The notes under the pieces were generated by a model that saw only the letters and a list, made by a program, of their open reading frames with translations, did no database searches and was not told where the DNA came from. A stretch of DNA of 38,351 nucleotides from a virus (taxonomy: Duplodnaviria; Caudoviricetes): positions 1 through 38,351 of the IMG/VR virus record IMGVR_UViG_3300018070_000009. One strand, 5' to 3'. The number at the start of each line of letters is the position of its first letter. Positions within the stretch are counted from its first letter, which is position 1. Made by a program: the position numbers and the translations under genes. This document shows positions 75 to 15,789 of this stretch, piece after piece.

Positions 75-743
75 ATGAAAAAATTATTAAGTAAAAACAG
101 TGCAAGTGTATATTACTTTGATGCAGAAGGAAATAAACACGAAGGTGTTCACGAAAAAATAACTGGTGATGCTAGTGGTATAAGTGAAGATGTTACTGGT
201 ATACGTGGTTGTGTTACTAACATAAGTGGTTGTGTTAATGGTATAACTGGTTATGTTGATGGTATAACTGGTTGTGTTAGTGGTATATCCGGTTATATTA
301 CTGGTCTAAGTGGTTGTGTTAGTGGTCTAAGTGGTTGTGTTAGTGGTATAAGTGGTTGTGTTACTGGTATACATGGTTGGGTTAGTAATATATATGGTTG
401 TGTTAGTAATATAACCGGTTGTGTTACTGGTATAATTGGTTGTGTTGATGGTCTAAGTGGTTGTGTTGATGATATAACTGGTCATGTTAGTAATATAACT
501 GGTTGTGTTGATGGTCTAAGTGGTTGTGTTAGTAATATAACCGATTGTGTTACTGGTATAATTGGTTGTGTTGATGGTCTAAGTGGTTGTGTTGATGATA
601 TAACTGGTTGTGTTAGTGGTATAACTGGTTGTGTTAGTGGTATACGTGGTTGTATTGATGGTATAACTGGTTGTGTTGATCAGTGTGAAATAACTCCCGA
701 AGAGAGAGAAAAAGGAATAGATATTAACGATTTAATTAAGTAA
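75..743 (+). CDS. Hypothetical protein with 25 Cys/Gly-rich heptad repeats, consensus (I/L)(T/S)GCV(S/T/D)(G/N)
   Basis: ORF with short unique N- and C-terminal caps around the repeat block; stop is 1 nt before the next start. Confidence 0.85.
   Translation: MKKLLSKNSASVYYFDAEGNKHEGVHEKITGDASGISEDVTGIRGCVTNISGCVNGITGYVDGITGCVSGISGYITGLSGCVSGLSGCVSGISGCVTGIHGWVSNIYGCVSNITGCVTGIIGCVDGLSGCVDDITGHVSNITGCVDGLSGCVSNITDCVTGIIGCVDGLSGCVDDITGCVSGITGCVSGIRGCIDGITGCVDQCEITPEEREKGIDINDLIK
159..683 (+). repeat. Coding 21-bp tandem repeat, 25 units, with a higher-order 87-bp duplication
   Basis: Unit about ATAACTGGTTGTGTTAGTGGT; 396-482 and 522-608 differ at one base (offset 126 = 6 units). Confidence 0.95.
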
Positions 744-12955: not shown

Positions 12956-13702
12956 ATGAATAAAAGAATTTATGGATGTTTGCCGGATAAGCATGATAAC
13001 CGGGACTTAAAGTATACAAGAAAAATAGTAGACTTACCTACCAAGGTAGATTTATCTTCCAACATGCCATCGGTATACGACCAGGAGAATATTGGATCGT
13101 GTGTGTTTAATGCTATTGCTGGTGGATTTGAATACCTTCTACCAATAGAAAAAAAAGAAAATTTTATGCCATCTAGGCTTTTTGCTTATTTTAATTATAG
13201 GGAAAAAGAAGGAAACATACAAGAAGATACAGGAGCTACTATTCGAGGAGGTTTTAAAATATGTGCAAAACTAGGTTTTTGCAAAGAAACCAATTGGCCT
13301 TATGATAAGAATTTTTTTACTACTAAACCATCTATAAAAGCTTATAATGAAGGTTTAAATCATCAAATTTTGAAATATGAAAGAATCCGCCATCTTTATG
13401 ATATGAAAGAATGTTTAGCCGAAGGTTATCCATTTGTAGCTGGAATTAAAATATATACATCTTTTGAATCCTCTACTGTAGCTAAAACTGGTATTGTGCC
13501 TATGCCTGACATTGAAAAAGAAGAATTATTTGGTGGCCATGCTGTACTAGTTGTAGGATATGATGATACAACTAGTATGGTTAAGGTTAGAAATTCATGG
13601 AGTGAAAAATGGGGAGATAAAGGGTATTTCTACTTACCGTATCATTTTATTACAGACATAAACTTAGCGTCTGATTTTTGGACTATTCGATTAACTGAAT
13701 AA
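12956..13702 (+). CDS. Papain-like cysteine peptidase (family C1A, xylellain-type)
   Basis: DQENIGSC, GGHAVLVVGY and RNSWSEKWGDKGY supply the Q/C/H/N catalytic residues. Confidence 0.95.
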   Translation: MNKRIYGCLPDKHDNRDLKYTRKIVDLPTKVDLSSNMPSVYDQENIGSCVFNAIAGGFEYLLPIEKKENFMPSRLFAYFNYREKEGNIQEDTGATIRGGFKICAKLGFCKETNWPYDKNFFTTKPSIKAYNEGLNHQILKYERIRHLYDMKECLAEGYPFVAGIKIYTSFESSTVAKTGIVPMPDIEKEELFGGHAVLVVGYDDTTSMVKVRNSWSEKWGDKGYFYLPYHFITDINLASDFWTIRLTE

Positions 13703-13717
13703 TTATAAATTAACATT

Positions 13718-13849
13718 ATGATAAAATTTATAAAAAAAATATCATTATTATTTTGCATTATAGCTATCATGGCTATGAGTTCCGATTCTTATTATACCTT
13801 TCATGGTGGAACTATACATTTAATTATAAATAATCATTTAAATTTTTAG
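13718..13849 (+). CDS. 43-aa peptide with signal-like N-terminus (not in ORF track)
   Basis: MIKFIKKISLLFCIIAIMAMSSDSYYTFHGG...; fills the gap between protease and membrane protein genes. Confidence 0.45.
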   Translation: MIKFIKKISLLFCIIAIMAMSSDSYYTFHGGTIHLIINNHLNF

Positions 13850-13853
13850 TATT

Positions 13854-14645
13854 ATGAAAAAGTACATTTATGCGTTTTTTGGAATTTTGGCTTTCTTAAG
13901 CCCTTTTTTTATTTTGTTATGTTTTGTGACTGAAATGCGGGCACAAGATTCTATCGGAGAAGTTCCTTTGAATGTTTCTGGCAGTTCATTTAAAGAATTG
14001 ATTGTGGGCAATTGGGCTGCGATTCTTACTTTTGTTCTATATGCTGTTTGGGAGTTTGCCCTTGGTGAAACTTCCAAAATCAAAGCTAATTCCACCGTAA
14101 AACTTATTTACAATTGGATAATGAGTTTTTTGAAAAAAAAAGCTGGAAAAGTAACAATTATCGCCGTCGTTTTTGGTTGTTCGGTCCTTGGGTCAAACGT
14201 AAACGCTCAAAGTCCTTTTGATGGATTTTTTAATCCAATTGCACAGAATGAAAATTTTAAAGTAAAAAAACTACAATTGGATTCAACCACAACATTAACT
14301 ACACCAGTTGCAAGCACCTCGTTTTTATTTCGCCCTTCGGTAGCCGTTACAGGTGTTCTGTTCGATCTAAAAACTAAGGAAACACAAACCCTTACCGGTG
14401 CTGGTTTTGGTATAAGTTATGGTAGTTATACCGTTACAAACGGGGTTTCTTATTGTAATTATTCTTTTAATGCGTCACTTCTTACAGCTATTAAGATAAA
14501 CGATGAAACTACGGCTAATTTTGGGGTTGCTGCTTCGGTGGATGTATTTAATAAAGTAGTAGGGCTGTTGGTAGGATATTTAGGAACTAGTGGTTTTGCC
14601 GATGGTCATATAGTGGCAGGCACTACCTTCTCATATTCATTCTAA
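13854..14645 (+). CDS. Membrane protein with two signal-peptide-like segments and a beta-rich C-terminal domain ending in Phe
   Basis: MRA|Q31, TM helix about aa 53-71, KKKAGK plus hydrophobic stretch plus VNA|Q119, alternating beta pattern ending TTFSYSF. Confidence 0.75.
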   Translation: MKKYIYAFFGILAFLSPFFILLCFVTEMRAQDSIGEVPLNVSGSSFKELIVGNWAAILTFVLYAVWEFALGETSKIKANSTVKLIYNWIMSFLKKKAGKVTIIAVVFGCSVLGSNVNAQSPFDGFFNPIAQNENFKVKKLQLDSTTTLTTPVASTSFLFRPSVAVTGVLFDLKTKETQTLTGAGFGISYGSYTVTNGVSYCNYSFNASLLTAIKINDETTANFGVAASVDVFNKVVGLLVGYLGTSGFADGHIVAGTTFSYSF

Positions 14646-14669: not shown

Positions 14670-14702
14670 AAAGGGGTGTCCTATTTTAGGGTACCCCTTT
14701 TT
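14670..14702 (+). terminator. Intrinsic terminator at the convergence of the two arms, possibly bidirectional
   Basis: AAAGGGGTGTCCTA-TTT-TAGGGTACCCCTTTTT: stem with two G-U pairs and a T tract. Confidence 0.8.
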
Positions 14703-15033
14703 CTAATAAAATAGAATCAATACGTTCTTGTAGTTTTAAAAAATTTAATTCAACTTTATGCCTTATGTATACCTCATGTTTAATTTTATTCTTAAGAAGA
14801 ATAATAGAATCTTTATTAAGGTCGATGTTTGACAAATAAATACTATTAATAAATTGAATATTTTTATAATTAAGCATTTCTTTATTTAACAAGTTGTGAT
14901 AACAAATCAAACTATCTTTAACTTGTTTATACTTATATTCTAAATCAATTTTACTCCTATTAACTTTTACCAATAAAAACACTAATATAATTAGTGTAAT
15001 TATTGATAATAAATTAAATTTAGACACTTTCAT
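14686..15033 (-). CDS. Single N-terminal TM plus helical periplasmic protein (i-spanin-like)
   Basis: N-terminal hydrophobic helix and coiled-coil-like remainder; last gene of the late operon. Confidence 0.5.
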   Translation of the reverse strand: MKVSKFNLLSIITLIILVFLLVKVNRSKIDLEYKYKQVKDSLICYHNLLNKEMLNYKNIQFINSIYLSNIDLNKDSIILLKNKIKHEVYIRHKVELNFLKLQERIDSILLEKGVP

Positions 15034-15037
15034 TATA

Positions 15038-15409
15038 CTATTTCTTATTGATTAATAAGTTGTATATATTATCAATGGTAGCATGAGCCTCGGCTTGTTC
15101 GTTAGCTAACATAGATAATGTTTGATGTACCGAGTTGATTTGTACCTGTACCTTCTCTACATCTTTTAAATCAGCCTTATCTATTTCAAATTCTTTAAAT
15201 CTTTGATCTATCAAGTCTAGTTCTTTCTTTTTTATTTGACTAGTAAATTTAACATAAAATACAACTATAGATGTTAATCCCCCATATCCTAATATAAGAA
15301 TGTGTTCTTTGCTGTCCCATCCAATTTTAAGAATTATAGATGTAAGTATAATACCTATTACGCATCCAGCAAACCACGTTAAGATACTTTGCCAAAAAGA
15401 TCTTGCCAT
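15038..15409 (-). CDS. Two-TM membrane protein with coiled-coil tail (holin/antiholin-like)
   Basis: Two hydrophobic helices followed by a charged heptad region. Confidence 0.55.
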   Translation of the reverse strand: MARSFWQSILTWFAGCVIGIILTSIILKIGWDSKEHILILGYGGLTSIVVFYVKFTSQIKKKELDLIDQRFKEFEIDKADLKDVEKVQVQINSVHQTLSMLANEQAEAHATIDNIYNLLINKK

Positions 15410-15789
15410 TAAAAATATTTATTAATTATAAGACTTATGATTAACATTATTGCTATAGAAATAGCAATAATAAATCCAAAAACTTTGGAAGTACAATAGT
15501 TTACCCATTCAATATAATCTTGATTGATTAACGCTATATTATATAATATCAATTCAGATAAAAAAATAATAATAACCCAAATTATCATCTTTTGAAGAAT
15601 AGATTGTGTTATTGGTATTATTTCAATAAATATAGCTAATGGTAAAAAGAATACTAAAATAATATGATAATATGTCCTCCAAAATGTAGGACATATTATC
15701 TCTTTATCCCCAAATATCATATATATAACATACAATGCTAAATATATCATACCTGTAACAATAAACCTATTGATAACTTTTGCTATCAT
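15409..15789 (-). CDS. Four-TM membrane protein (holin-like candidate)
   Basis: Four hydrophobic segments; TAATG coupling to the next gene. Confidence 0.6.
   Translation of the reverse strand: MIAKVINRFIVTGMIYLALYVIYMIFGDKEIICPTFWRTYYHIILVFFLPLAIFIEIIPITQSILQKMIIWVIIIFLSELILYNIALINQDYIEWVNYCTSKVFGFIIAISIAIMLIISLIINKYF

Follow-up and report, generated by a model that had tools for sequence, protein, structure and literature searches.

The virus analysed here encodes, in a single open reading frame, what look like two exported proteins placed end to end. This raises the question of whether the product is one bridging protein or two separate ones, and of what a phage would gain from either. The window (the whole stretch of 38,351 nucleotides that was analysed) carries this gene at 13854..14645 on the + strand. 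The original prediction, made from the letters of the DNA, had proposed either a polyprotein cut by the host signal peptidase into inner-membrane and outer-membrane products, or an uncleaved bridge between the two membranes, such as an unusual unimolecular spanin or a superinfection-exclusion factor.

Layout and setting of the fused gene

The 263-residue product consists of a signal peptide, a class-A inner-membrane module, a second signal peptide and a six-stranded domain of outer-membrane type, all encoded on the + strand. Signal peptide 1 (aa 1–30; 13854..13943), predicted from the sequence, ends in Ala followed by Gln31 and is longer than that of the homologues. The class-A module (aa 31–99; 13944..14150) comprises a periplasmic stretch, a transmembrane helix (54–70), an amphipathic helix (81–96) and a basic end. 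It leads into the internal signal peptide (aa 100–118; 14151..14207), the counterpart of the N-terminal signal of stand-alone members, with a signal peptidase I site predicted from conservation at A118|Q119. The mature domain starts with the motif Q-x-x-W/F-x-G-F-F-x-P and a variable linker (aa 119–154; 14208..14315), predicted to be periplasmic, and ends with six antiparallel strands (aa 155–263; 14316..14645). In these strands a hydrophobic face lies opposite a face of small residues, aromatic residues mark the ends, and the chain closes with Y-x-F.

The elements on which the original prediction was built, A30|Q31, a helix at ≈54–70, K94–K99, the hydrophobic stretch 100–115, A118|Q119 and the final Phe, were all found in the sequence. 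The out–in–out topology that it proposed agrees with an AF2 model of the full chain (pLDDT 69), which has helices at 2–28, 46–52, 54–70, 81–96 and 100–115 and strands at 155–262. Of the ≈145 residues that it described as a beta pattern, 155–263 make up the beta part, with six strands, whereas residues 119–154 proved to be a conserved short motif followed by a variable linker. The first Gln site is present in 19 of 27 class-A rows (20 of 28 when the window protein is counted) but missing in the eight nearest homologues; judged by sequence, cleavage there is less secure than at the second site.

A one-off lesion or an assembly error might have joined two genes, for which a single-base change at a stop/start overlap suffices. 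However, contigs from four of four sequencing runs, one of them possibly the source of this DNA, span the fusion junction with zero indels. The fused frame is also kept in eight close homologues (44–79% identity), and 26 class-A fused proteins share it at identities down to ≈22–30%. This origin, to which we gave hardly any weight, was refuted for the window gene by the indel-free contigs and the conserved fused frame.

The window has a GC content of 30% and encodes a DnaB helicase, an LPD38 protein and a weak match to a crAss muzzle protein; it is only part of a genome, and the same protein is found on a 66.9-kb contig. The fused ORF is the last of a + strand run, after a papain-like C1 peptidase (12956..13702, +) and a 43-aa ORF. 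The peptidase, a recurrent upstream neighbour of the family, has the catalytic residues Q43/C49/H195/N213, invariant in seven aligned rows. On the opposite strand, three small membrane genes converge on the fused ORF at a hairpin with A and T flanks (14670..14700, z −3.6), which is likely to be a two-way terminator. These three genes (14686–15789, −; one, two and four hydrophobic segments) terminate the virion-gene strand and may include the real holin or an i-spanin-like protein; they gave no significant family match and have no homologue in loci L002–L049.

The 43-aa ORF (13718–13849, +), between the peptidase and the fused gene, has a signal-like hydrophobic start; it has no Pfam match and is missing at the equivalent place in L002. 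Near the start of the window, 75–743 (+) encodes a 222-aa protein with short Gly-rich repeats, whose family matches look compositional. A scan of 33 window ORFs revealed no known wall hydrolase. A two-component spanin was not found either: the window gave no PHROG spanin match and, by pattern, no ORF with a lipobox. A sigma-70 scan gave matches at chance level only.

Split and fused members and the fate of the internal signal

A profile search of 1.84 billion representatives yielded 205 proteins at E 0.001. The best 150 of these 205, together with close homologues, made a set of 158 proteins, 81 of them 140–179 aa long, 74 of at least 200 aa and three fragments. Rows that were fragments, mis-starts or divergent (P0023, P0027, P0035, P0038, P0053, P0095, P0098 and P0109) were omitted, and the resulting alignment (A5) held 150 rows, 79 stand-alone and 71 fused among the matches listed. 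The short members consist of a signal peptide of ≈19 residues and the beta domain, to which the long ones add an N-module; residues 100–263 of the window protein match an entire stand-alone protein. The family is nearly exclusive to phage contigs. A genome scan with one subgroup gave two matches, while two queries gave none in 50,697 isolated-phage records. Pfam, PHROG and NCBIfam hold no family for the window protein or its homologues, there was no PDB sequence match for the protein, and a literature search, with subscription journals mostly outside its scope, found no paper describing the family. The host is inferred from sequence to belong to the Bacteroidota, because both genome-scan matches lie in Bacteroidota bins and the products follow the Gln rule described for signal peptidase I of Bacteroidetes (in the part of PMC5837995 available to us).

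Among the matches listed, 77 N-modules (from 74 proteins and three locus ORFs) fell by BLAST into six groups and two oddities. Five of the six groups, including class A, also occur as separate adjacent genes (L036, L049, L040/L041/L046, L047 and L039); for the class-B fusion, no locus was among those retrieved. The separate class-A gene is the kind of split homologue for which the original prediction had proposed a search, and it was found, among other places, beside a stand-alone beta gene. The gene encodes ≈108 aa, the 15 matches to it are ≈100–110 aa long, and its product aligns with the window protein over 85 residues at 34% identity. At L036, the class-A gene overlaps the start of the stand-alone beta gene. 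When one split and two fused junctions were compared, the frame differed at the stop/start overlap, in the closest pair (L036 and a fused gene) by one base. In a quick tree built from the mature domains (144 columns), which cannot distinguish fusion from fission, 32 changes of the stand-alone label are required, at least nine of them forced by well-supported branches, indicating that fusion or fission has occurred repeatedly. The fusion is probably a tolerated by-product of stop/start overlaps rather than a source of new function.

In the alignment of the matches listed, the second site lines up with the cleavage site of the 79 stand-alone members, which places it above chance. Gln occupies its +1 position in 70 of the 71 fused rows among these matches. 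All 70 have Ala or Ser at −1 and a strong h-region (70/70 for each), and 65/70 have a net basic linker before the internal signal. Ala is found at −1 in 66/70 fused rows vs. 47/78 stand-alone rows, showing that the second site has not decayed in the fusions. By sequence pattern, a signal peptidase I signal is present in 76 stand-alone and 70 fused rows, and the mature domain begins with Gln in 99% of rows.

We considered the possibility that the locus contains two in-frame nested genes, with translation of the beta protein beginning at a separate internal start and the fusion an incidental read-through. In the window protein, Met90 lies just ahead of the basic segment, and a comparable Met, within 10 residues of the h-region, occurs in 19/70 fused rows vs. 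a background of 15%. However, the other 51/70 have no such Met, the context of Met90 is average (46th percentile among internal ATGs), and the pre-signal region of L030, L037 and L042 contains no in-frame ATG, GTG or TTG. Nested genes thus appear quite improbable, and internal restart was rejected.

The second hydrophobic segment might instead stay uncut, so that the protein bridges both membranes like an inverted unimolecular spanin. The topology permits such a bridge, and the fusion arose or persisted in about half of the family. Against this stand the absence of the inner-membrane part from 79/150 rows, the intact second site with its preference for Ala at −1, and the assignment of the fused partners to six different groups. 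Moreover, only ≈37 residues separate the helix from strand 1, a short tether, and the protein has no lipobox. The uncleaved branch of the original prediction is therefore improbable, if slightly less so than nested genes.

The polyprotein branch fared much better, being backed by the split class-A homologues, the conserved second site and the unsupported internal restart. Since the second site is conserved and most fused rows have no internal start, a polyprotein cut by signal peptidase is the simplest reading of these sequences, and we regard it as highly probable. Two neighbouring lysis-cassette genes would have been fused recurrently, and the chain would be made as one. After insertion by Sec, signal peptidase I would cut after A30 and A118, as conservation suggests, and the new Gln ends would presumably cyclise in keeping with the Bacteroidetes Q-rule, leaving one small product in the inner membrane and one, with six strands, that is predicted to go to the outer membrane. 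A bacterial polyprotein split at an internal signal-like peptide is known from Bradyrhizobium, the FbcH cytochrome b/c1 precursor. Unlike the chain described here, FbcH is not from a phage, and it gives rise to respiratory inner-membrane proteins with no outer-membrane product.

The six-stranded domain

The AF2 model of the beta domain has six strands (pLDDT 85, pTM 0.75). With strand faces assigned manually from the same alignment (150 rows), one face consists to 75% of large hydrophobic residues and has 0% charged residues, while the other is 65% G/A/S/T and is rich in Gly, Ser, Thr and Asn. The last residue is Phe in 86% of rows, the C-terminus reads Y-x-F, and aromatic residues sit at the strand ends. 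The features of a BAM substrate are thus present: amphipathic strands, aromatic ends and a C-terminal aromatic-x-Phe. Covariation was not used to pair the strands, as conservation artefacts dominated the signal.

A designed six-strand barrel comes closest in structure (Z 9.0, rmsd 2.6, 86 aligned residues); the matches that follow include OmpA, OmpW, NspA and PagL (Z 5.7–6.4). Foldseek returned no PDB row at E 0.001, and in BFVD one uncharacterised phage protein was matched (E 3e-4). To our knowledge, natural monomeric membrane barrels have at least eight strands, and the domain as modelled is not an ordinary monomeric eight-strand barrel. Both the designed barrel as best match and the strand number would suit a soluble small barrel, periplasmic or secreted, or a virion part, rather than an integral membrane protein. 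Such a protein is very unlikely, however, given the uncharged face of large hydrophobic residues, the small polar face opposite, the aromatic strand ends, the Y-x-F terminus and the presence of OmpA, OmpW, NspA and PagL among the next matches.

From sequence and model together, we predict that the beta domain is an integral outer-membrane protein. The C-terminal product would enter the outer membrane via BAM with both ends in the periplasm and form either a closed but very narrow barrel or an oligomer. If this is true and the protein is monomeric, it would be the smallest natural transmembrane barrel. In strand pattern, aromatic ends and C-terminal Y-x-F, the family resembles OmpA, OmpW, NspA, PagL and lambda Lom, but it has six strands rather than eight, no sequence match to them and a nearly exclusive occurrence in phages. 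Another phage-encoded, six-stranded protein resembling outer-membrane proteins is cyanophage DUF680 (IPR056410), modelled as a 12-strand dimer in the available section of 10.64898/2026.10.24.761521; like the beta family, it combines a signal peptide with six strands. However, the contexts given in that section are phosphate-uptake and virion loci rather than lysis, and it mentions no fusion. None of 79 family members matched Pfam DUF680 at E 0.1, and the DUF680 fold row for the beta domain was weak (E 0.12, TM 0.24); any kinship between the two would be remote.

Lysis cassettes and a possible role at the outer membrane

When loci retrieved with the beta query were clustered at 70% identity and inspected with 1.5 kb flanks, 14 of 18 clusters were found in lysis-type cassettes, by our own classification. 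Five clusters have a nearby amidase, M15-type or Tlde1 gene, and five more have a DUF5675 gene, whose product is inferred from its position to be a lysin. Typically, a wall hydrolase or DUF5675 gene is followed by a C1 or C14 cysteine peptidase, a small membrane module and the beta gene; in the window, the C1 peptidase alone marks the position as that of a lysis cassette. The link to lysis at which the original prediction had guessed thus gained support from the cassettes, although the spanin bridge itself did not. The other four of 18 clusters have no lysis marker, and two of these belong to large phages, in which the gene lies in the replication region. At L009:3546–4025 and 14 related large-phage loci, a stand-alone beta gene lies in a replication cluster, between a RecA-like gene and a 5'-3' exonuclease in these 15 loci, with gp32-like and helicase genes also there.

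Papain-like C1 peptidases, caspase-like C14 peptidases and a further papain-like family (phrog_19005) replace one another in one slot of the lysis cassettes (window 12956–13702; L019, L026, L028, L036, L039–L042, L046 and L047), and this slot frequently has a true amidase or M15 lysin as its neighbour.

At L002, L036 and L042, the class-A module occurs as a small transmembrane protein within a lysis cassette. It gave no holin-family match, the only lead being a weak atlas neighbour named 'putative Holin' (0.91), and it carries a signal peptide, unlike a typical holin. Class F and another of the small modules did give weak holin-family matches (E 0.016–0.1). Class A is thus a candidate holin at most.

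A reverse test took the 66 loci of the class-D holin-like gene as its starting point. Of these, 6/66 (four of them seeds) had the beta gene nearby, as did 2/80 C1 loci and 14/59 C14 loci; with so few, the inner-membrane or peptidase partner is not obligatory. A u-spanin-type lipoprotein of 159–183 aa was present in 16/66 class-D loci, never together with a beta gene; this call was our own pattern of a lipobox and a C-terminal transmembrane segment, after the available part of PMC6139136, and it misses some lipoproteins. The lipoprotein directly follows the class-D gene in L057, L060, L068, L080 and L084, and the same slot is taken by the beta gene in L040, L041, L046 and L053. By cluster, u-spanin-type lipoproteins occurred in 0/26 family clusters vs. 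9/32 family-negative class-D clusters (Fisher p 0.003, ignoring kinship), where 8/26 family clusters had come via the peptidases, flanks were short and 23/32 comparison clusters had neither gene by these patterns. Restricted to family clusters in lysis context, the figures were 0/21 vs. 9/32 (p 0.008, kinship again ignored). L060 is a possible counter-example to this exclusion: it has, besides its u-spanin-type gene, a truncated gene with an outer-membrane-like ending two genes upstream of the class-D gene (E 0.25 to the beta family). That u-spanins are the relevant comparison fits the statement, in the accessible part of PMC12596118, that Bacteroidetes phages use only u-spanins.

The proposal that the beta protein takes the place of a spanin, being itself anchored in the outer membrane as an integral protein, has in our view about an even chance. 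The protein would accumulate late and disrupt or fuse the outer membrane after loss of the wall, a timing and action suggested by the position of its gene and its mutual exclusion with u-spanin-type genes. Speculatively, it might breach the membrane by forming a pore; alternatively, the conserved aromatic motif at its N-terminus could reach across to the inner membrane after removal of the wall. Its pairing with any of six module groups, or with none, suggests that no particular inner-membrane partner is required.

The same cleaved polyprotein might instead supply an accessory outer-membrane protein that travels with late envelope genes and serves in receptor masking, in superinfection exclusion like lambda Lom, or in stabilising the envelope. 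The non-lysis context of four of 18 clusters, including the large-phage replication region, would agree with this, as would the place of the window gene at the end of an early/replication-strand run. Phage outer-membrane proteins are also common, and Lom is reported to block LamB (available section of 10.64898/2026.10.24.761521). However, an accessory role leaves unexplained both why the gene follows holin-like genes and lies next to wall hydrolases, and why it and u-spanin-type genes exclude each other. It is clearly the less probable of the two roles, but we take it seriously.

The single-gene, beta-rich envelope protein resembles unimolecular spanins such as T1 gp11 (PMC6139136, as far as available) in its occurrence in lysis cassettes, in the same slot behind the class-D gene. 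Unlike these, it has by pattern no lipobox and no C-terminal transmembrane helix, its C-terminus being an amphipathic strand, and its signal is of the signal peptidase I type rather than II. Its predicted anchor is the beta domain itself, and the fused form is likely to be cut rather than to span the periplasm. By membership the beta protein would not be a spanin, and it is a balanced question whether it acts like one, as seems likely to us. Another non-spanin solution to outer-membrane disruption in lysis is the phiKT gp28 disruptin, which, according to the accessible text of 10.1101/515445, is a cationic peptide, unlike the exported beta protein of ≈135–145 aa. The same text gives ≈15% as the share of phages of Gram-negative hosts that have no spanin gene. 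For the step in which such spanin-less phages breach the outer membrane, the beta family offers a concrete candidate, for which the gene-slot swap with u-spanin-type genes is the argument. The proposal of a fourth class of phage outer-membrane lysis protein, integral and six-stranded, inserted by BAM, replacing the spanin in Bacteroidota phages and repeatedly made in one polyprotein with an inner-membrane lysis protein, to be cut by signal peptidase, is tentative, falling a little short of an even chance. Its newness as a class of lysis protein holds under the spanin-substitute reading only. The family also provides a predicted six-strand BAM substrate and a phage polyprotein that would yield products for both membranes.

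The u-spanin-type lipoproteins fell into eleven sequence clusters with no significant PHROG match (e.g., L057:3725–4240, L060:731–1264, L066:4965–5468, L068:3743–4222, L080:3685–4167 and L084:3783–4328), and only one of 11 scanned had so much as a weak spanin match. These clusters are candidates for new Bacteroidota u-spanin families. Elsewhere, the place after the class-D gene is taken by a third kind of product, proteins of ≈200 aa with an N-terminal hydrophobic segment (L054:3734–4345, L074:3731–4351 and L100:3731–4339). Finally, a Cys-rich lipoprotein family recurs in cassettes beside either the beta gene or the u-spanin-type gene (L058:3731–4129, L223:4988–5608, L202:1595–2164 and L070:2832–3410).
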